64,000 bases of DNA, taken from assembly GCA_043719155.1 (NCBI GenBank), contig JAYSUJ010000022.1:10448-74447 (forward strand). The letters run 5' to 3'. Both the position numbers and the translations under genes were made by a program. How positions within the stretch are numbered: position 1 is the stretch's first letter; each line of letters opens with the position of its first letter. Source of the DNA: a bacterium (GTDB lineage Bacteria > Patescibacteriota > Minisyncoccia > Phycocordibacterales > UBA5272). Positions 13,208 through 62,672 of the stretch are shown here, in pieces. The notes under the pieces are model-generated. The model had not been told where the DNA came from and made no database searches. It worked only from the letters and a program-made list of their open reading frames with translations.

Positions 13208-13423
13208 ATGCTGAGTATTACCATGACACGGAAGGCAAAGTTCCTTCGCAATATGCTTATTGTTATCTTGATAACCACCTTAGGTCTAGCGGAGCTGCAA
13301 GGCAACGCAGGACTTAGCTCTATCCAGTGGATAGGGGTTGTAGTTGGAAAGTGGGCGGGTTACCTGCTCACTATCTACACAGGTTGGAAACTCTTGCTGG
13401 CAATGTTTGCGAAGGGAAAGTGA
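13208..13423 (+). CDS. Small hypothetical membrane protein (71 aa; ORF-track ORF starts 13163) antisense within ATP synthase operon, GC-elevated
   Basis: RBS GGAAAGGA 7 nt before ATG 13208; MLSITMTRKAKFLRNMLIVILITTLGLAE... two hydrophobic helices; followed by terminator. Confidence 0.35.
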   Translation: MLSITMTRKAKFLRNMLIVILITTLGLAELQGNAGLSSIQWIGVVVGKWAGYLLTIYTGWKLLLAMFAKGK

Positions 13424-19740: not shown

Positions 19741-19890
19741 ATGGATGCACTTCTACTTGCACTAACTCTGGCCTTTGCTGGTGCCACAGGATTTTTTTTC
19801 CTTGAGCATAGCAGCGAATGGAAGATGCTTGTTAGTGGCACCATGATGCTGGTCTCACTCCATCTATTCCTCAAGAGGACAAAGGTGTGA
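19741..19890 (+). CDS. Small hypothetical two-helix membrane peptide (49 aa), GC-elevated
   Basis: GGAG 8 nt before ATG; MDALLLALTLAFAGATGFFFLEHSSEWKMLVSGTMMLVSLHLFLKRTKV; terminator follows. Confidence 0.3.
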   Translation: MDALLLALTLAFAGATGFFFLEHSSEWKMLVSGTMMLVSLHLFLKRTKV

Positions 19891-21859: not shown

Positions 21860-22132
21860 ATGTGGGAAATCACGGAATGCCTAGTGCAAAGTGACATGCT
21901 TCTCAAAGGACTACTCGCGAAAGGATGGGAGCCTTTCTCAGTTCTTTCCAGAAAGGCTTTCCAAAATGGAGCTAACTTCGGCCCAGTCTGCTTTCTTCGT
22001 CGAAAGATTGAAGAAGAACTGGAGGTCAAAGCTCTTTTTACTCAAGATCAAGTCAAGGCACATCTTGCTGAAGGCTGGTCCTGGGTAGGATCCCAAGAAA
22101 GCATTGTTTACCTTTCGCGACCGAAACAATAA
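21860..22132 (+). CDS. Small hypothetical protein (90 aa; ORF-track GTG start 21842), GC-elevated island antisense between ligA and gatC
   Basis: RBS AAAGGAAA 5 nt before ATG 21860; overlapping ORFs on both strands reflect high GC; could alternatively be structured RNA. Confidence 0.3.
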   Translation: MWEITECLVQSDMLLKGLLAKGWEPFSVLSRKAFQNGANFGPVCFLRRKIEEELEVKALFTQDQVKAHLAEGWSWVGSQESIVYLSRPKQ

Positions 22133-40403: not shown

Positions 40404-40655
40404 ATGCCCAAAATGCCCTCAAAAGCAAGAAAGCACGCAAAACCTTGGAACACTTCTGAGGTTTACTTTTACTGCTTTAACCCAGGAACTGGACACGGCA
40501 AACTCTTTTGCCGGACCAATCAACAACAGTTCTGCTTTACCCGGCAACAATGGAAAGATGCCGGTTTTCCTCGGCTTCTTTGCGAACAAAGCTTGCTAAT
40601 TAATTGGGTGACAGAACCAAATGGTGAGCTGAAAGTCCTAAGTATGGGCAAGTAA
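40404..40655 (+). CDS. Small Cys-containing hypothetical protein (83 aa), GC-elevated, downstream of tRNA-Leu
   Basis: RBS GAAAGGAAA 4 nt before ATG 40404 (ORF track uses TTG 40377); MPKMPSKARKHAKPWNTSEVYFYCFNPGTGHGKLFCRTNQQQFCFTRQQW..; terminator follows. Confidence 0.35.
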   Translation: MPKMPSKARKHAKPWNTSEVYFYCFNPGTGHGKLFCRTNQQQFCFTRQQWKDAGFPRLLCEQSLLINWVTEPNGELKVLSMGK

Positions 40656-47322: not shown

Positions 47323-50244
47323 CTAGAGTACTATATTTACAATCTTGTTTTTAACTACAATAATTTTTTTAGGAGCAACTTCACCTACCCATTTTTTGTA
47401 ATTTTCCAGATCTTTCGCCAGCTTTATCACTTCATCATCGCTTAAATTTACAGCACAAGCAAAAGAGTCTCGCAACTTTCCATTAACTTGAAATGCAATG
47501 TTGGTAGTATTGGCAACTATTTTAGTTGCGTCAAACTTTGGCCAAGAAGTTTTGTGTATAGAATAGTTTGTATTAGATAGACTTTCCCAAATCTCTTCAG
47601 TAAAAAATGGACAGATAGGTGTTAAAAGTTTGAGAAGAGTCTTGTAATCTTCTAAATTAATTTTCTGACTTTTGGTTTTGTCTACGGCATTTGTAAAAAT
47701 CATCAGTTGAGCTATGGCAGTGTTAAACTGCAACTTTTCATAATCCTCTTCACACTTTTTAATAGTTTGATTCAACACTGTTTCTATGTTTTCGTCTTTT
47801 ATATCTACTTCATTTATTTTGTATTGCAAATCCCAAACTCTCTCTATAAATCTTCTTGGACCTACTATAGCCTTTGAGTTCCAATTTGAAGAGTCGTGGT
47901 ATGGGCCTGTAAAGGCCAAATAAAGCCTTAAAGTATCAGCCCCAAATTGTCTTGCTACGTCGTCTGGGTTGATGACATTTCCATATCGTTTAGACATCTT
48001 TCGCCCATCTTCTCCCATAATTAAGCCTACAGCTTCTAGTCTCTTAAATGGCTCTTTTGTGGTCAGTACATTTTTGTCAAATAAAAACAGGTTCCAAAAA
48101 CGACCATATATCAAATGTCTTGTGGCATGCTCTAAGCCTCCTAAATAAATATCTACATCACCCCAATATTTTTCCTCAACACTGCCAACCAAAAAGTTTT
48201 CATTGTTTGGGTCCATGTAGCGCAACCAATACCAACTACTTCCTGCCCATTGCGGCATAGTGTTTGTTTCTCTTTTAAATAATTCCCCCTTTAGGTCACT
48301 TACAAATTCCCCACTTTCATTTATAAAACCATAAACGTCTGTGAATTCTTTAATATTTGCAAGCGGTGACTCGCCGTCACCTGTTGGCTCATAGCTTTCT
48401 ACTTCAGGTAAAAATACAGGCAATTCAGTATCTGCAACAAGATAATTTTTCTTTACTTCGTTTCCAATACTGTCTTTCTCAATTCTAGAAACAATCGGAA
48501 AAGGTTCACCCCAATATCTTTGTCTGGCAAAAACCCAATCTCGTAATTTGTACTTTGTTACCATTTTTCCACCTACAAAATCAACAATTTTTCTGCCAGC
48601 CTCTTCACTTTTTTGTCCATCAAATTTTCCAGAATTAACTAAAATGCCATTTTCCGTAAATAGTTTACCATTTAAATATTCGTCGAAATAAAATTTATGA
48701 TGTTTGGTAAATTTTAATGAAGTTAAAATTTCTTCTTTGGTTTTCCAGTCACCAATTTTAGTTCTCTCATCTACAATTTCTCCACGCTCATCATTTTCTA
48801 AAATAACTTCAAAAATCGCATCGTGACAAAGCTCTTCAACAACTTTTCTTGGTTTGTACCCTCTACTAAAAGCATTTTCAAAAATAGTTTTAACGGACTT
48901 AATATTTTTGTATCCTGTTTCTTCTGTAACCTCTCTTCTTACAGCATCGTCAGCACTTTCTCCTGTCTCTAGGCTGCCACCCGCCATTCCCTCTTCCGCC
49001 CCAAAGTCTATTACATAATACTTTTCCTCTGACCAGTGTTTTACTATAGCTGTGGCAGCTTTAAATTCACGAATGTTTTCTTCACTTTTTGGCGTACTTG
49101 GTCCATCCATAAGTGTAAAAGGTGCTACTACTTGTTTTTTTTCAATCCCAAACATATTTGCGAACTCGGCGTCTCTTTCGTCATGTGCTGGCACAGCCAT
49201 TATTGCCCCTGCACCGTAACTTGCCAAAACATAGTCGGCAATATAAACTGGAACTTGTTTTTGGTTGGTTGGGTTTATAGCAACTACACCTTCTAATTTC
49301 ACCCCAGTTTTTTCACGGCCTTCTGCACCTCTTTCAATTTCAGTTTTATCCTTAGCTCCTAAAATATACTTTTCAACCTCAATGCTATTTGAAATTAAAT
49401 TTTTTTCCAAGTATTCTTTTACAAGTTTATGTTCTGGTGCAAATACACAGTAAGTACAGCCAAATAATGTGTCAGGACGTGTGGTAAAAATTGTAAATTT
49501 GTTTTTTACTTCTCCACAAACTAAGTCAAAAACTATTTCCGCCCCCTCACTTTTTCCTATCCAGTTTCGCTGCATCTCTTTAATACTTTCTTTCCACTCC
49601 AAATTGTCCACCCCACTTAAAAGCTGCTCTGCATAGTCGGTGATGCGTATCACCCATTGTCTAATAGGTTTTTTTTCAACTACACTACTGCAACGCTCAC
49701 ACTTACCATCTTCTAAGTCCTCATTTGCTAGACCAGTTTTACAGCTTGGACACCAATTTATCGGCTCAAAGCTCTCATAACAAAGTCCTGCTTTGAAAAG
49801 CTGTTTAAAAATCCATTGCGTCCATTTATAAAATTTAGGATCTGTAGTATTAACAGTTCTGTCCCAGTCGTAAGAGAGTCCCAACATTTTCATTTGTTTC
49901 TCGAAATTGTCAGTATTTTTTTTAGTAGAGATTTTTGGATTTATTTTATTTTTAATAGCAAATTGTTCTGCAGGTAAACCAAAAGCATCCCAACCTGTAG
50001 CATGCAAAACGTTATACCCTTGCATTCTTTTTAGACGCGAATAAATATCTGAAGCTGAGAAAATTTTAGCGTGCCCAGCATGCAAACCCTCGCCACTTGG
50101 ATAAGGAAACATGTCTAAAACATGCATCTTTTTTTTACTTAAATCTAACTCAGTTTTGTACAACTTAGCTTCTTCCCATTTTTGGGCCCATTTAGCTTCA
50201 ATATCTTTAGGACTATAGAGTTTTTTAAGATTGTTTTGTGACAT
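47323..50244 (-). CDS. leuS: Leucyl-tRNA synthetase with inserted Nudix hydrolase domain
   Basis: HAGH (PYPSGEGLHAGH), editing CP1 TTRPDT, KMSKR; 973 aa; residues ~378-527 form Nudix fold with canonical Nudix box. Confidence 0.95.
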   Translation of the reverse strand: MSQNNLKKLYSPKDIEAKWAQKWEEAKLYKTELDLSKKKMHVLDMFPYPSGEGLHAGHAKIFSASDIYSRLKRMQGYNVLHATGWDAFGLPAEQFAIKNKINPKISTKKNTDNFEKQMKMLGLSYDWDRTVNTTDPKFYKWTQWIFKQLFKAGLCYESFEPINWCPSCKTGLANEDLEDGKCERCSSVVEKKPIRQWVIRITDYAEQLLSGVDNLEWKESIKEMQRNWIGKSEGAEIVFDLVCGEVKNKFTIFTTRPDTLFGCTYCVFAPEHKLVKEYLEKNLISNSIEVEKYILGAKDKTEIERGAEGREKTGVKLEGVVAINPTNQKQVPVYIADYVLASYGAGAIMAVPAHDERDAEFANMFGIEKKQVVAPFTLMDGPSTPKSEENIREFKAATAIVKHWSEEKYYVIDFGAEEGMAGGSLETGESADDAVRREVTEETGYKNIKSVKTIFENAFSRGYKPRKVVEELCHDAIFEVILENDERGEIVDERTKIGDWKTKEEILTSLKFTKHHKFYFDEYLNGKLFTENGILVNSGKFDGQKSEEAGRKIVDFVGGKMVTKYKLRDWVFARQRYWGEPFPIVSRIEKDSIGNEVKKNYLVADTELPVFLPEVESYEPTGDGESPLANIKEFTDVYGFINESGEFVSDLKGELFKRETNTMPQWAGSSWYWLRYMDPNNENFLVGSVEEKYWGDVDIYLGGLEHATRHLIYGRFWNLFLFDKNVLTTKEPFKRLEAVGLIMGEDGRKMSKRYGNVINPDDVARQFGADTLRLYLAFTGPYHDSSNWNSKAIVGPRRFIERVWDLQYKINEVDIKDENIETVLNQTIKKCEEDYEKLQFNTAIAQLMIFTNAVDKTKSQKINLEDYKTLLKLLTPICPFFTEEIWESLSNTNYSIHKTSWPKFDATKIVANTTNIAFQVNGKLRDSFACAVNLSDDEVIKLAKDLENYKKWVGEVAPKKIIVVKNKIVNIVL

Positions 50245-50292
50245 ATTTTTTGTAAAATTATTCTAATTACATGATACACTATTTCACAACTT

Positions 50293-50880
50293 ATGGTCAA
50301 ATTAAAATCACCTCAAAATTTTGATGAAAAAATCACAAGTGCCATGGGGTCTGTGCCCTCTATCATAATCCACACACTTTTATTTATCACTTTTCTTTTA
50401 TCCCCGTTTTTTGGATTTGACCTAGAGAAATCACTTTTGGTTTTAACCACAGTAGTTTCTTTAGAAGCTATATACTTGGCTTTATTTATTCAGATATCCT
50501 TAAATAGGCAGAGTAAAACAATAGCCGAGGTTTCCGAAGACATTGAAGAAATCCAAGAGGACGTAGAAGATATTCAGGAAAATGTTGAAGAAATCCAAGA
50601 GGACGTAGAGGAAGTCTCAAAGGATGTAGAAGAAATTAACGAAAGTGTAGAGGAGATAGAGAAAGATGTAGACGAACTAAGTGAGGACGTAGAAGAGTTG
50701 CAAGAAGACCTCGAGGAGTCCGAAAAAGAAGATGAAAATGAAGAAAGAACTGAAAAAGAACAAGAAAGAATCGAGAATCAAAAAGAAAAGATACGGCAAG
50801 CTGACCAAAAAAAGCGTCTTGAAAAAATGGAGAATCTTTTAGAAAGTCTTTTAGGAGAAATTTCTAATTTAAAAAAATAA
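50293..50880 (+). CDS. Membrane-anchored protein with highly acidic heptad-repeat coiled-coil tail
   Basis: 2 N-terminal TM, then repeats EDIEEIQEDVEDIQENVEEIQEDVEEVSKDVEEINESVEEIEKDVDELSEDVEELQEDLEE. Confidence 0.55.
   Translation: MVKLKSPQNFDEKITSAMGSVPSIIIHTLLFITFLLSPFFGFDLEKSLLVLTTVVSLEAIYLALFIQISLNRQSKTIAEVSEDIEEIQEDVEDIQENVEEIQEDVEEVSKDVEEINESVEEIEKDVDELSEDVEELQEDLEESEKEDENEERTEKEQERIENQKEKIRQADQKKRLEKMENLLESLLGEISNLKK
50533..50720 (+). repeat. ~9 tandem 21-nt (7-codon) repeats encoding (E/D)(D/I)VEEIQ units
   Basis: Direct inspection: gaagaNatNcaagaggacgtagaa periodicity. Confidence 0.6.
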
Positions 50881-50989
50881 TTTTGTTTTTTAAATGATTT
50901 AGTGTAAAATGTCAATACTTGTGGTAAATCTATCACAAAGTGATTTACGCTTTGTCGGTAACCCAGATAAAACGCTAAAGGAGACATCC

Positions 50990-51370
50990 GTGTCAAACTA
51001 TGCTTTCTATTTACTGGTTCTGCTTGGTTTGTGCCACTGGCTTGGTGACTTTTCACATCTGACTACAAAATGGATGCAGGAAGCCAAGCGTTACGGACAT
51101 CCGTTCGAACCCATCCTTGCACACGCATGTGCGCACGGAGGCTTGATGTGTCTCGCACTGCAACTAAGCAGTGCAAGTCAAACCAGGATACTATGGACTT
51201 GTTTGTTTCAAGTGTTGATGCACTTTTGCATCGACATGACAAAAGGCGCGCTAAATGGGCTGTACCCCAGCTTGGAAAACCAAAGAGAGAAACCATATTG
51301 GTATATCTTTGGCTTCGACCAGTTTTTGCACTTCTTTACTATCTTGGTCATGGTTAAAGCCCTAACCTGA
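50990..51370 (+). CDS. Hypothetical polytopic membrane protein with conserved His/Cys residues (126 aa; ORF-track ATG start 50909)
   Basis: RBS AAGGAGA 5 nt before GTG 50990; MSNYAFYLLVLLGLCHWLGDFSHL..HACAHGG..HFCID; GC-elevated. Confidence 0.45.
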   Translation: MSNYAFYLLVLLGLCHWLGDFSHLTTKWMQEAKRYGHPFEPILAHACAHGGLMCLALQLSSASQTRILWTCLFQVLMHFCIDMTKGALNGLYPSLENQREKPYWYIFGFDQFLHFFTILVMVKALT

Positions 51371-51387
51371 TTTGAAGAAGGGGTGTA

Positions 51388-51420
51388 AGTGGTCGGCAAC
51401 GCAAGTTGCCGACCTTTTTA
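51388..51420 (+). terminator. Intrinsic terminator, copy 1 of duplicated hairpin
   Basis: gtggtcggcaac-gcaa-gttgccgacc + TTTTTA. Confidence 0.65.
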
Positions 51421-51432
51421 TATTTCTTTTTT

Positions 51433-51461
51433 TTGCATTTTCAAATCATTTCAGTTAAAAT
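51433..51461 (+). promoter_or_regulatory. Near-consensus sigma70 promoter for Cys-rich peptide gene
   Basis: TTGCAT (51433-51438) - 17 nt - TAAAAT (51456-51461). Confidence 0.55.
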
Positions 51462-51510
51462 GTAAAAGCAGGAAAAAACTGCAAAACAGAAATGCATTAG
51501 GAGAGTAAAA

Positions 51511-51687
51511 GTGGACACCACCAGTACACCCTCAACCAAATTCTGCATCGGAGACCCAGGCGACGAATGCGACTCAAAGAGTTGTTCCTGCTGCAAAAAG
51601 AGCAGCAAGAAAAGCCAAACGAAGGAACTTCAAAGCCAGGGCGACAACCTAACCAAATTTGTCGTTCTATCTTTTGCAAAAAGATAA
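51511..51687 (+). CDS. Cys-rich small peptide (58 aa, GTG start), not in ORF track
   Basis: RBS AGGAGAG 5 nt before GTG; VDTTSTPSTKFCIGDPGDECDSKSCSCCKKSSKKSQTKELQSQGDNLTKFVVLSFAKR; own promoter and terminator. Confidence 0.4.
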   Translation: MDTTSTPSTKFCIGDPGDECDSKSCSCCKKSSKKSQTKELQSQGDNLTKFVVLSFAKR

Positions 51688-51706
51688 ACGCAGAACATTG
51701 AATAGT

Positions 51707-51747
51707 GAGTGTGTAAGTCGACCACAAGTCGCTTTCACACTTTTTTT
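51707..51747 (+). terminator. Intrinsic terminator after Cys-rich peptide gene
   Basis: Imperfect GC stem gtgtgtaagtcgac..gtcgctttcacac followed by TTTTTTT. Confidence 0.5.
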
Positions 51748-51761
51748 ATTTAAATCTAAAT

Positions 51762-51789
51762 TTGACTTTTTATAAATTTATAGTAAAAT
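51762..51789 (+). promoter_or_regulatory. Near-consensus sigma70 promoter for 51845 gene
   Basis: TTGACT-16 nt-TAAAAT. Confidence 0.55.
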
Positions 51790-51844
51790 ACTAGGACTCA
51801 TACGGCATCCGCTGTAGTGAGAATCCTAGAGAAGGAAACTGCCT

Positions 51845-52162
51845 ATGGCAGACCAAGACAAAGAGCTCGACGAAATCCTGGCAAAACTCAAGAGCGCCGG
51901 AATCGGAGTCTCCGTCATGCAAGGATGGGACGTCGCCAAGTTGTTGTCCGAAGTAACTCGCGAGGACAACAACCAGTTCCCTCCGGAACTGACGGCAAAA
52001 GCTGCTGGTATGCGCGACGCCTTCTTCCAAGAATACGAAGTTGTCGTAAAGGCCCTAGCGGTCAAACACGGCATTGATCTCCTTGATGGAAATCTCGAGA
52101 TCGCCATCGATATGGTTGAGCTCGCCAAGGCCGGCAAGTCGCAAGGTGAGCCGGCAGCCTGA
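51845..52162 (+). CDS. Hypothetical acidic soluble protein (105 aa), GC-elevated
   Basis: RBS GAAGGAAA before ATG; MADQDKELDEILAKLKSAGIGVSVMQGWDVAKLLSEV..; terminator copy 2 follows. Confidence 0.45.
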   Translation: MADQDKELDEILAKLKSAGIGVSVMQGWDVAKLLSEVTREDNNQFPPELTAKAAGMRDAFFQEYEVVVKALAVKHGIDLLDGNLEIAIDMVELAKAGKSQGEPAA

Positions 52163-52184
52163 TAGCTCTCAGGCAACTCTAGAA

Positions 52185-52216
52185 AAAGTAGGTCGGCAAC
52201 GCAAGTTGCCGACCTT
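52185..52216 (+). terminator. Intrinsic terminator, copy 2 of duplicated hairpin
   Basis: gtaggtcggcaac-gcaa-gttgccgacc + TTTTAT; 27/28 nt identical to 51388-51415. Confidence 0.65.
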
Positions 52217-52268
52217 TTATCTTTTTCTTTATCTTTCTTTAAATATTTCAAAATATATTTATTTAAAA

Positions 52269-52895
52269 TTACTTAATTTCTGTAAATAAGTCATCTTCAG
52301 GAAATCTTGCTTTAGGATAAATTTTATCGCTCTCATCTCTATATCCAATTGCCAAAATTACTGATGGTTTAAAGATGCTTCCTAATTTCAAAACTTTTGC
52401 ATACTTTTGAGCATTAAAACCTTCCATCGGGCAAGAGTCTACTTTTAATTCCGCACAAGCTGCCAAAGCGAATCCAAGAGGGACATATGTTTGGTTTCTC
52501 GCCCAAGAAGTTTTAGTTAAAAACTTTCCCATTTTAAAAATAGAAATTACGGAAAGAAAGTGTTGAAATCCAAATGCTGCTTGAGCTAAAAAAGAATTTC
52601 CCAATCCTTTTAATTTTTCTATTCCTAGGAATCTTTTTTGCAAGTCAGTTCTTGCACAAAAAACCAAAAGGTGCGAACAAGTTTCAAGCTTACTCTCATT
52701 GTTTGGAGATACTTTTTTTAATAGTTCCAAAATGTCCTTATTTGAAATAATCTCTACATGAAAAGGCTGTGTACCAAAAGAAGTAGGGGCCATCTTTATT
52801 GCGTCCTTTATTTTTTGTAGATTTTCTTCACTTACTTTTTGATTGTTAAATTTTTTAGTCGCGTATCGCCAAGTTAGATTTTCCAAAAATGTCAT
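52269..52895 (-). CDS. Nitroreductase-family flavoprotein
   Basis: N-terminal RYATKKF..(nitroreductase signature R-x-S/A-x-R/K-x-F), 208 aa. Confidence 0.75.
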   Translation of the reverse strand: MTFLENLTWRYATKKFNNQKVSEENLQKIKDAIKMAPTSFGTQPFHVEIISNKDILELLKKVSPNNESKLETCSHLLVFCARTDLQKRFLGIEKLKGLGNSFLAQAAFGFQHFLSVISIFKMGKFLTKTSWARNQTYVPLGFALAACAELKVDSCPMEGFNAQKYAKVLKLGSIFKPSVILAIGYRDESDKIYPKARFPEDDLFTEIK

Positions 52896-52901
52896 ATTGA
52901 T

Positions 52902-54014
52902 TTAGTTAACCATAAACTCTAGCACATCACCATCTTTTACAATGTATTCTTTACCTTCTGTACGCAGTTTTCCATTTGCTTTTGCGTTAGCAAAACTACC
53001 AGACTCAAGTAACTCTGACCAAAATATAACTTGAGCCTTTATGAATCTTTCTCTAAAATCAGTATGTATAGCTTGTCCAGCCACTGGTGCTGTTGAACTT
53101 TTAGCCACAGTCCAAGCTCTAGTTTCTTGTACGCCAGTAGTAAAATAAGTTTCCAGCTCTAAAAGTTTGTAAGCCGACTTTATTAGATTATCAACACCGT
53201 TATCATCTTTGTTTCCACCCAATTCTTCCCTGAATATACTTTTTTCCTCACCTTCAAAATCTTTCAAATCATCTTCTATTTTTGCATCAACCATCACAAA
53301 TTCACTATGTGTTTCCTGTATGTATTTTGCCAACTCTAAAAATTTTACATCTGTTTCCTCTATGTTTTTCTTGCCTGTACTCTTATTTAAGATATACAAA
53401 ATTGGCTTCGAGGAAAGCAATGTTAATTTTTTGAGAACAACTATTTCTTCCTCTACTAAATTTGGCAAAAGACTAGAGACCAGTTTGCCATCATTTACAA
53501 CAACTAAACATTTTTGTAGAACTTCTTTTTCTTTTATAGCATCTTTATCACCTTTTCTCACATCTTTCTCTAAATTTTGTAATCTTTTTTCTATAGTTTC
53601 TAAGTCAGCTAAAGCAAGTTCAGCGTTTATAATTTGAACGTCACGCAGTGGATGTACCGAACCCTCGACATGCTGTATATCTCCAAGTTCAAAAAGTCTT
53701 ACCACATGCCCAATAGAGTCACATTCACGAATATTTGAGAGAAACTTGTTTCCTAGTCCCTCACCTTTACTCGCCCCTTTTACCAGACCGGCAATATCTA
53801 CAAACTCTATGACAGCAGGTACAGTTTTATTAGTTTTAGAAAACTCCGACAGCTTCCAAAGCCTGTCATCTGGCACAGCTACAATTCCCACACTTGGGTC
53901 AATAGTGCAAAAGGGATAATTCTCTGCAGGCACACCTTTTTTAGTTAATGCATTAAACAAGGTAGACTTTCCTACGTTTGGTAGTCCCACTATTCCGATA
54001 CTTAGTTTTGCCAT
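52902..54014 (-). CDS. ychF: Ribosome-binding ATPase YchF (Obg family)
   Basis: GIVGLPNVGKSTLFNALT G1, FCTIDP, C-terminal TGS domain. Confidence 0.92.
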   Translation of the reverse strand: MAKLSIGIVGLPNVGKSTLFNALTKKGVPAENYPFCTIDPSVGIVAVPDDRLWKLSEFSKTNKTVPAVIEFVDIAGLVKGASKGEGLGNKFLSNIRECDSIGHVVRLFELGDIQHVEGSVHPLRDVQIINAELALADLETIEKRLQNLEKDVRKGDKDAIKEKEVLQKCLVVVNDGKLVSSLLPNLVEEEIVVLKKLTLLSSKPILYILNKSTGKKNIEETDVKFLELAKYIQETHSEFVMVDAKIEDDLKDFEGEEKSIFREELGGNKDDNGVDNLIKSAYKLLELETYFTTGVQETRAWTVAKSSTAPVAGQAIHTDFRERFIKAQVIFWSELLESGSFANAKANGKLRTEGKEYIVKDGDVLEFMVN

Positions 54015-55376: not shown

Positions 55377-55868
55377 TTACGCCTCCCTACCCTGCACCTT
55401 AACCCTTTCGACCAAATCATTAATAATAACAAGAAGTGAATTATTAATACTTGTTAGAAAATCTTTTTTTTGTTTTGAGTTCCACATACTTTGAAAATTA
55501 ACAACATTATCTGCCAAGCTTATTTCCAACTCTGCACACTTTTTTTCTATTTCTTGAACTAATTCTGGGTAATTATGCTTTGTTGTAGTGTTAATCTCCG
55601 TAATCAGGGATTGCAGTTTTTCAACACTCTCTACAAGTTCCTCTGTTTCTTTTTTTTCTTCTTCGTCCGTTTGTTCTTGCTGTACTTTAGCCAGTTTTTC
55701 TTTTAAAAGTTTTAAATTTTCATTTATTGAGACAAAGTTTACAGTTTCTTTATTGCTGCCAGGCATACCAGCTATAGCCACAGCAGCGGCAACTACTCCT
55801 GCATCTTTTAATAGCCCTCTTCGGGTTACAGGTCTGTTTAAATAATCTGCAAATGCCATATTTTTCAT
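55377..55868 (-). CDS. Hypothetical protein with twin-arginine (Tat) signal peptide, coiled-coil, co-transcribed after nrdB
   Basis: MKNMAFADYLNRPVTRRGLLKDAGVVAAAVAIAGMPGS: T-R-R-x-L-L-K + h-region + AxA-like; starts 1 nt after nrdB stop. Confidence 0.5.
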   Translation of the reverse strand: MKNMAFADYLNRPVTRRGLLKDAGVVAAAVAIAGMPGSNKETVNFVSINENLKLLKEKLAKVQQEQTDEEEKKETEELVESVEKLQSLITEINTTTKHNYPELVQEIEKKCAELEISLADNVVNFQSMWNSKQKKDFLTSINNSLLVIINDLVERVKVQGREA

Positions 55869-62146: not shown

Positions 62147-62311
62147 ATGCCACCACGCAAGTCCAATGGCAAACCACTGACTGAAAACAAAAAAACTCCA
62201 AACAAACGGGGCGCCTCAAAACGCTCACGTCACATGCGGCGACGTGAAGAGCAGACAACAAACCTGCGAAACCTCTCGCGCAAGCAGGACGACAGCCAGT
62301 CCGCAAATTAA
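62147..62311 (+). CDS. Small highly basic hypothetical protein (54 aa; ORF-track TTG start 62087), GC-elevated
   Basis: RBS GGAAGGAAAA 4 nt before ATG 62147; MPPRKSNGKPLTENKKTPNKRGASKRSRHMRRREEQTTNLRNLSRKQDDSQSAN; terminator follows. Confidence 0.35.
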   Translation: MPPRKSNGKPLTENKKTPNKRGASKRSRHMRRREEQTTNLRNLSRKQDDSQSAN

Positions 62312-62360: not shown

Positions 62361-62672
62361 CCTTTTAAAACTTTTAAAAAGAAAAAACGACTCAAAAGTC
62401 GTGTTTTTTAATCGTCATTTTTTCTTTAGGGCTATCTGCCGTAAACCTTAGAACGAGTCCAAGGTGGGAACCGCAAGATAAACTAATATTTGTGCGAGTA
62501 AACGCGCAGCAAGTTGACCTAATATGAAGCTCCCTTAAAATATTTTGTAAAGTTTTATAAACAAATAGCCCTGTAAATTATTTTATGCTTATTTTTATTT
62601 TTTTGCAATATTGACGCTAGGTACAATGTGTAAAACTATAAAAGTAAAGTTGACTTTTATTTTAAAATAAAA

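Follow-up and report, generated by a model that had tools for sequence, protein, structure and literature searches.

The stretch of DNA analysed here, a window of 64 kb from one genome of the Patescibacteria, holds a compact islet of three small genes that fills the spacer between two host genes. The islet is the entire spacer at 50881..52268, i.e. the 1388 bp between the stop codon of a coiled-coil gene and that of a nitroreductase gene, and it carries three plus-strand open reading frames (ORFs), each set between a promoter-like site (P) and a terminator (T) in the order P1-ORF1-T / P2-ORF2-T / P3-ORF3-T. On the left lies a plus-strand gene (50293-50880) for a DUF1003-like protein of 195 amino acids (aa), which combines a transmembrane segment with an acidic coiled coil and gives weak matches to DUF1003 and DUF948; on the right lies the nitroreductase gene (52269-52895, minus strand, PF00881). 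By synteny, the wider neighbourhood consists of the genes for LeuRS, the coiled-coil membrane protein, nitroreductase, YchF and RNR. A first-pass annotation, made from the letters alone, had described three independently punctuated units at this place, and the ORFs, ribosome-binding sites (RBSs), promoter-like sites and terminators of all three bear this description out.

The islet differs from its surroundings both in base composition and in codon usage. Its GC content is 0.432, against 0.359 for the whole window, and the window-wide peak, scored over 300 nucleotides (nt) at a time, falls within it at 51801-52200 (0.52-0.54). The sharp compositional contrast proposed earlier holds for this peak and for the GC content at third codon positions (GC3), but not for the raw GC of the region of unit 1 (0.45-0.47), which is matched by some conserved host genes. 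It is GC3 that stands out, at 0.53 in unit 1, 0.54-0.55 in unit 2 and 0.63 in unit 3, where 49 host genes average 0.289 +/- 0.030 with a maximum of 0.36. Furthermore, the relative synonymous codon usage of the islet correlates with that of the pooled host genes at r = -0.08, as compared with a mean of r = 0.75 for single host genes, and TTA, the host's favourite Leu codon at 30% of all Leu codons, is used for only 1 of the 35 Leu residues of the islet. Judged by these measures, the islet is foreign to its host in codon usage. Its intergenic portions are AT-rich, as they are in the host.

Three self-contained units and a duplicated terminator

All features of the units given below lie on the plus strand, save the terminator of unit 3, which is assigned to no single strand. 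Unit 1 is a coding sequence of 126 aa (50990..51370) that starts with a GTG codon, 5 nt behind the Shine-Dalgarno (SD) sequence AAGGAGA (50978..50984). The source record annotates it as 153 aa from an ATG at 50909; this ATG sits within the -10 box of the unit and has no RBS, and the Pfam match discussed below starts at residue 8 of the 126-aa form. The promoter-like site, TTGTTT-16-TAAAAT (50883..50910), was read from the sequence and is weak, with 8 of 12 positions matching and a score under the scan threshold, and the region around it resembles the promoter regions of both other units, with 71% over 38 nt for unit 3 and 76% over 29 nt for unit 2. Since no terminator follows the coiled-coil gene, unit 1 may also be transcribed by read-through from it. 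At 51391..51418 the unit ends in a hairpin with a GC-rich stem of 10 bp, a GCAA loop and a T-run (minimum free energy (MFE) -24.2 kcal/mol, z -5.8).

The predicted product of unit 1 is a four-helix membrane protein of the DUF3307 family. Its match to PF11750 reaches 50.1 bits against a gathering threshold of 23 (E 3.5e-13, profile positions 1-107 of 127), and it also matches phrog_2470 (E 8.9e-15), a family labelled 'membrane protein' that PHROGs files under 'moron, auxiliary metabolic gene and host takeover'. Compared with three annotated DUF3307 proteins encoded on megaplasmids of Shinella, Roseateles and Sinorhizobium, its identity is 32-36%, and it retains HxxxDF, AHAxxHG, HxxxD and FGxDQxxH, that is, every residue that is invariant among the plasmid proteins (H16, D20, F21, H45, H49, G50, H78, D82, F107, G108, D110, Q111 and H114 in the alignment with these three). 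There are four hydropathy peaks and, in a single-sequence AlphaFold2 model of low confidence (predicted local distance difference test (pLDDT) 57), four helices; both these and the length of the protein fit the range of the family (about 120-140 aa). With the cut-off passed and length, helices and invariant residues all in agreement, unit 1 is a bona fide, divergent member of DUF3307. What sets it apart from the family is how far it has diverged, seeing that the plasmid copies are its nearest, that tblastn gave no match in phage records, and that a search of 5.8e9 protein clusters found only unit 1 itself and no word-sharing relative. A DUF3307 gene has been annotated in the jumbo phage RsoM2USA (PMC8504454). 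Elsewhere, genes of this family stand in unrelated contexts, adjoining those for an AGE epimerase and a GNAT protein, and are not accompanied by a Cys-rich partner. The conserved His and Asp residues in or near the helices of unit 1 suggest a metal-binding membrane enzyme or an ion-binding protein; to our knowledge, DUF3307 has neither an assigned function nor a known role in immunity.

Unit 2 (51511..51687) is an ORF of 58 aa that is absent from the gene calls of the source record. Its promoter-like site, TTGCAT-17-TAAAAT (51433..51461), begins 15 nt past the end of the terminator of unit 1. It had been called perfect, but its -35 box matches the consensus at 3 of 6 positions and its -10 box at 5 of 6, and the scan lists it as TTTGCA-18-TAAAAT, at 9 of 12. 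The SD sequence AGGAGAG (51499..51505) stands 5 nt ahead of a GTG start, and an imperfect hairpin followed by seven T residues (51707..51749; MFE -15.8 kcal/mol, z -2.8) closes the unit. This SD sequence, an ORF taking up most of the interval from promoter to terminator and a GC3 of 0.54 are our reasons for regarding unit 2 as probably coding. Its product is probably a small, Cys-rich, hydrophilic and basic peptide (isoelectric point (pI) 8.7) with five Cys in 17 residues, at positions 12, 20, 25, 27 and 28 and including a CSCC motif, rather than with six in 16 as first counted. The grand average of hydropathy (GRAVY) is -0.79, the highest value over any 15 residues is 0.42, and there is no leader-like or hydrophobic segment. 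No family was found for it in Pfam, PHROGs, NCBIfam or PADLOC, and no relative in phage records, IMG/VR or the corresponding loci of related genomes. The peptide possibly binds zinc.

Unit 3 (51845..52162) encodes an acidic protein of 105 aa (pI 4.5) without homologues, i.e. an ORFan. It has the best promoter-like site of the region, TTGACT-16-TAAAAT (51762..51789; 10 of 12), and an SD sequence read directly from the DNA, GAAGGAAA (51831..51838). The GC contents of its first, second and third codon positions are 0.67/0.34/0.63, a typical codon periodicity. Single-sequence AlphaFold prediction, again of low confidence (pLDDT 57), gives an all-helical fold of four helices. In the 5.8e9 clusters, and in an exhaustive HMMER search over 1.84e9 representatives, unit 3 found only itself, apart from P0003, a protein of 526 aa (E 2.5e-06) in which six near-identical repeats of ~76 aa inflate the score and which we do not accept as homologous. 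A sequence search of the PDB gave no match either. The product is predicted to be an acidic, helical, cytoplasmic ORFan protein.

Units 1 and 3 end in the same terminator module. That the terminator is duplicated had been recognised from the start; the two copies turn out to be identical at 28 of 28 positions (GGTCGGCAACGCAAGTTGCCGACCTTTT), not 27, and lie exactly 800 nt apart. The hairpin is a perfect palindrome of 24 nt followed by a T-run. The second copy (52190..52218; MFE -21.6 kcal/mol, z -5.5) has an A-run upstream and thereby resembles a terminator on either strand; it could therefore also stop the convergent nitroreductase transcript. Searched as GGTCGGCAACGCAAGTTGCCGACC with 3 mismatches allowed, the hairpin occurs exactly twice in the 64 kb, where shuffled sequence is expected to yield 0, and within the window it is therefore not the common REP-like repeat that could have explained it away. 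Among 185,579 species-representative genomes, a set that does not include the source genome, the stem was found at 38 loci, none of which has the GCAA loop or these flanks, and a scan of IMG/VR gave no match. Those stem matches carry other loops, lie in unrelated genomes of high GC content and mostly belong either to a nested palindrome of Promicromonospora and Rhodococcus or to isolated terminators. In this palindrome, the stem GGTCGGCAAC/GTTGCCGACC forms the core of a longer structure, ggtcggcag..gtcaggtGGTCGGCAACCCGGGTTGCCGACCacctgac..ctgccgacc, which is present in many copies in Promicromonospora genomes, with a related one in Rhodococcus; examples within the set of loci (L001-L038) are L005 2454 and L033 3411. 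It is a REP-like element unrelated to the hairpin of the window, and within the 64 kb a REP reading of the latter is disfavoured by its mere two copies and by a stem that, in the genomes scanned, is nowhere combined with the GCAA loop or these flanks.

Promoter-like sites numbered 11 in a consensus scan, where shuffles give 5.3 +/- 2.4, and terminator-like sites 5, where shuffles give 2.0 +/- 1.3. In the arrangement described, each unit would most likely be transcribed separately, from a promoter of the sigma-70 type into a short monocistronic mRNA that ends at its intrinsic terminator. Two identical 28-nt terminators at a distance of 800 nt are most simply seen as a copied module, and would in turn offer a substrate for recombination through which the 800-nt block with units 2 and 3 could be gained or lost.

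The same junction in related genomes

For comparison, synteny was traced through the LeuRS homologues of eight contigs from relatives, whose LeuRS is 59-66% identical to that of the window; a synteny search of JGI metagenomes based on the nitroreductase gave only relatives of <= 36% identity and was unhelpful. The gene order is kept in relatives (YchF > nitroreductase > < coiled-coil gene, LeuRS >). The stops of the nitroreductase and coiled-coil genes, which in the window enclose 1388 bp with three units, are separated in L050 and L052 by spacers of 34 and 31 bp that are AT-rich and without a hairpin, and in L053/L054 by an empty spacer of 3 bp. Both flanking genes are intact in the window and keep their conserved C-termini. 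From short spacers of 3-34 bp in the relatives and undamaged neighbours in the window, it follows that the 1.4 kb was added in the lineage of the window, and relative to its kin the 1388-bp stretch is, as far as sequence comparison goes, an insertion. The cassette-like origin that the first-pass annotation read from the duplicated terminator fits this empty site.

Other relatives show that the junction may hold different things. In L055 the spacer is 351 bp long (L055 4929-5279) and contains an unrelated, Cys-containing ORF of 79 aa in the orientation of the islet, with its own TATAAT box, a GGGAGA RBS and a GC-rich terminator. In L061 a spacer of 260 bp (L061 4137-4396) contains another unrelated ORF of 79 aa, basic, with a CxxC motif and on the strand of the nitroreductase gene. 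With different small genes in these two genomes, the junction is by sequence a variable spot across the clade. The nitroreductase gene is absent from L051 and L060. In the latter, two serine-recombinase genes lie directly 5' of a shortened YchF gene: the segment L060 1292-4384 includes a small resolvase gene and a gene for a large serine recombinase of 557 aa, and YchF is reduced to 328 aa with the C-terminal domain only. This looks like an integrated element that disrupts the same neighbourhood. In the related genomes sampled, homologues of units 1 and 3 are absent throughout, and no such GC3 outliers are present among the called genes of L050-L053.

Two further observations concern the host genes around the islet. 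The LeuRS gene of the window (47323-50244, minus strand) contains an inserted NUDIX domain (PF00293), which is common to most of its best 120 homologues; the few of these with a source name are labelled Paceibacterota, Parcubacteria or Patescibacteria. Between the gene for the small subunit of RNR and an AAA_18 kinase-like gene lies a gene of 163 aa (55377-55868, minus strand) with a host-like GC3 of 0.26; at this site L051 and L052 have no gene, and their spacers measure 19 and 114 bp.

Similar small units elsewhere in the window

Small units of this kind are not confined to the islet. Nearly all host genes of the window are on the minus strand, and the other small units are mostly on the plus strand, in intergenic gaps. 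They encode a two-helix membrane protein of 71 aa (13208-13423), a membrane peptide of 49 aa (19741-19890), a protein of 83 aa with 4 Cys (40404-40655) and a basic protein of 54 aa behind a TTGCAA-16-TATTAT site (62147-62311), all on the plus strand, as well as an ORF of 46 aa on the minus strand (651-791); a possible sixth unit, with a GC3 of 0.38, is found at 21896-22132 (plus strand). Each of these units (46-83 aa) has a promoter-like site, a strong SD sequence and a GC-rich hairpin with a T-run, and their hairpins are unrelated to the 28-nt module. In codon usage they side with the islet: the five clear units have a GC3 of 0.46-0.56, compared with 0.29 in the host, and when pooled they use TTA for 1 of 49 Leu residues and correlate at r = 0.31 with the islet and at r = 0.07 with the host. 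None matches a family, and for the three that were scanned against IMG/VR no viral relative was found. Downstream of the unit at 62147-62311, another terminator lies in the segment 62385-62672, aaaaaacgactcaaaagtcgtgtttttt, which is bidirectional; behind it comes a GC-richer stretch of ~100 nt (about 62430-62520), without an ORF or a match in Rfam, which may be a 3' untranslated region or a small RNA.

The GC-rich small ORFs also fold more stably than expected. Measured against dinucleotide shuffles, their folding z ranges from -1.1 to -3.4 (-1.1 to -2.8 for the other units), compared with -0.29 +/- 0.92 for pieces of host genes. Taken alone, the ORFs of units 2 and 3 reach -1.8 and -3.4, and their whole predicted transcripts -4.0 and -5.2. 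In units 1 and 3 the antisense strand is about as stably folded as the sense strand (-2.5 for unit 3); in unit 2 it is not (-0.3). We do not count the extra stability as evidence for an RNA gene.

The recurrence of such units bears on how the islet is to be understood. It had been singled out as the best candidate in the window for an undescribed small system, a view that has lost ground: the three predicted products are unrelated and give no sign of a joint function, and like units recur singly at no fewer than five other sites of the window. The islet is thus better described as a cluster of three genes from a wider class of plug-in small genes, and less well as a single functional system.

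Origin of the islet

Taken together, we consider the islet probably to be a lineage-specific, horizontally acquired set of self-contained cassettes, similar to the morons of phages, between two convergent housekeeping genes of a Paceibacteria-like chromosome. Genes of this plug-in type would bring their own transcription signals and could thus be expressed wherever they land, leaving their neighbours undisturbed. The moron concept of Hendrix and Juhala recognises such genes by a promoter and terminator of their own, a deviant GC content, an insertion between otherwise adjacent genes and the occurrence of hotspots (PMC2920897). The islet resembles them in lying between genes that are adjacent in L050, L052 and L053/L054, in the predicted promoter and terminator of each unit (that of unit 1 being weak), in its deviating base composition and codon usage, in a junction that receives different inserts in different genomes, and in the category to which PHROGs assigns the family of unit 1. 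A second likeness is found in the promoter-early stem-loop (PeSL) cassettes of T4-type phages, which flank ORFans and recombine to shuffle them (PMC2839356, PMC4122927). Modules of a terminator followed by a sigma-70 promoter likewise stand between the small ORFs of the islet, at 51391-51461 and 51707-51789, the cargo again consists of ORFans of unknown function, and the identical stem-loops bracket a block of 800 nt, with units 2 and 3, that could recombine out as a circle. Unlike PeSLs, the islet has a single 28-nt motif that occurs twice in 64 kb, with unrelated hairpins in the other units and no conserved consensus to be seen; moreover, its setting is not a T4-like genome. Because of the chromosomal setting and of a motif that is not conserved genome-wide, we propose that the islet works like morons and PeSLs, and do not claim that it is one.

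Two other types of small mobile or foreign gene deserve comparison. Integron cassettes are promoterless and lie near intI, attI and Pc, and their attC sites are imperfect palindromes of 57-141 nt with RYYYAAC/GTTRRRY cores. The islet shares with them the compact units of an ORF plus a palindrome, arranged in tandem and in one orientation. It differs in that each unit has a promoter-like site, the flanks are housekeeping genes and neither an integrase nor attI is present; an attC reading of the hairpin was rejected on account of its perfect 10-bp stem, 4-nt loop and T-run and of a match to the cores that is limited to AAC/GTT. In 2004 Daubin and Ochman reportedly described short, lineage-restricted ORFans of atypical composition and without homologues as plausibly derived from phages. 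The islet units are likewise short, lineage-restricted and atypical in composition, yet they depart from that description in being GC-richer rather than AT-richer than their host and in residing in a strongly reduced Patescibacteria genome.

So where might the islet have come from? Since PHROGs places the family of unit 1 in the category named above and the other units are ORFans, a phage of this lineage is our leading guess for the donor, albeit a tentative one that we call possible rather than likely. No match to phages or plasmids came from blastn of the islet, and neither did tblastn of the three products against phages, scans of IMG/VR with all three, or Foldseek searches of BFVD with the models of units 1 and 3 (E <= 0.001) yield any. 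A sub-threshold PADLOC match (PglX, E 0.02) was disregarded. In the literature, we found no paper that ties moron-like cassettes to the Candidate Phyla Radiation.

Several points weigh against acquisition of the islet as moron-like cassettes. Unlike morons, it is situated on a chromosome between housekeeping genes and not in a prophage, with no phage genes nearby and no match to phage DNA. No donor emerged from 50,697 phage records, IMG/VR or plasmids, with the exception of weak DUF3307 matches on proteobacterial megaplasmids, and at the islet itself there is no integrase, transposase, recombinase, direct-repeat scar or target duplication. The separate transcripts and the expression of the units are predictions, and the coding status of unit 2 depends on its SD sequence, its fit between promoter and terminator and a modest GC3. 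Furthermore, a high GC content and stable folding could reflect selection on short transcripts instead of a foreign origin, and what is visible amounts to one window of one genome.

This last argument leads to the alternative that the units are native, fast-evolving small genes, made GC-richer and more structured by selection, e.g. on the stability of their mRNA, with gains and losses at the local level. It would account for the similar GC3, the individual signals and the negative folding z at the five or more other sites of the window, for promoters and SD sequences of a general type seen elsewhere in the window, and for the mutual resemblance of the three promoter regions of the islet. An empty site in relatives does not sit well with it, nor do units 1 and 3 without homologues in the related genomes sampled, a unit 1 family that is widespread yet has no close relative in the lineage, or the called genes of L050-L053, which are free of such GC3 outliers; avoidance of TTA and an uncorrelated codon usage are, moreover, what transfer predicts. 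We therefore hold a native origin to be unlikely. GC-rich islands in AT-rich genomes are also a classic signature of structured RNA, and units 2 and/or 3 might be non-coding RNAs with promoters and terminators of their own, in which the ORFs are incidental. In line with this are the folding of the whole transcripts, the ORFan status of unit 3 and, for unit 2, the lack of a protein homologue in the searches made and of a gene call in the source record. Rfam is nonetheless blank for the islet, so that the region does not consist of known structured RNAs: with covariance models at E <= 1, the sole match in 50000-53000 is at chance level and inside the coiled-coil gene, and at gathering scores the whole window yields just two tRNAs. 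Unit 3 moreover has codon periodicity, both units have strong and correctly spaced SD sequences and ORFs that cover most of the interval from promoter to terminator, and the ORFs alone fold less stably than the transcripts, with an antisense strand that folds about equally well in unit 3, if not in unit 2. This renders the RNA explanation quite unlikely for the two units. Pfam assigned no family to the antisense and alternative-frame ORFs of the islet.

The remaining explanations treat the islet either as a functional partnership or as an artefact. A module in which the peptide of unit 2 and the membrane protein of unit 1 jointly bind or transport metal is suggested by the clustered Cys residues, CSCC included, and by the five invariant His and three invariant Asp that DUF3307 keeps in or near its helices. 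Such a dedicated metal-peptide system, raised at first, finds no backing in the family searches, where unit 2 matched no family and no metallothionein, metallochaperone or transporter family was hit; the neighbours of DUF3307 elsewhere include no Cys-rich partner, the units are punctuated separately, and unit 2 appears unique to the genome of the window. We deem it improbable. A bacteriocin or RiPP (ribosomally synthesised and post-translationally modified peptide) precursor in unit 2 with its immunity protein in unit 1, the other function put forward initially, has a broad likeness in its favour, with a small Cys-containing peptide beside a small polytopic membrane protein. The details contradict it and make it highly improbable: unit 2 is hydrophilic, matches no family and has no leader, double-glycine motif or hydrophobic or amphipathic core, neither the islet nor its syntenic surroundings include a gene for a modification enzyme, peptidase, transporter or ABC exporter, DUF3307 is not among the known immunity families, and gene order and separate promoters are unlike those of known loci. 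As for an assembly chimera or contamination, by which 1.4 kb of another organism would have been misjoined here, the sharp compositional contrast could be cited, as could the source, which is probably a metagenome-assembled contig since gene look-ups each gave a single copy on one contig. It is scarcely credible, given that the segment is internal to one contig of 76 kb with intact syntenic host genes on both sides, that its intergenic parts are AT-rich and host-like, and that the contig has units of this kind in several more intergenic gaps.

Acquisition of moron-like cassettes thus remains our preferred reading, and nothing about it points to a new mechanism; it is fairly ordinary gene acquisition. 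A bolder proposal, which we regard as rather unlikely, is that this genome is being colonised by self-contained mini-cassettes of non-host codon usage, each made up of a promoter, SD sequence, small ORF and hairpin terminator, that enter intergenic spacers, mostly facing against the core genes, and are reshuffled at their terminator/promoter modules. If true, it would be the chromosomal counterpart of moron and PeSL traffic and a main route by which minimal genomes gain small proteins. Patescibacteria, or the Candidate Phyla Radiation, have very small and streamlined genomes in which gene gain is little understood, and the locus described here offers a clean, datable example of small foreign genes that would have arrived with their own transcription signals. 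Should the pattern seen in the window hold genome-wide, it would amount to a moron-like flux of small genes in a bacterial chromosome.

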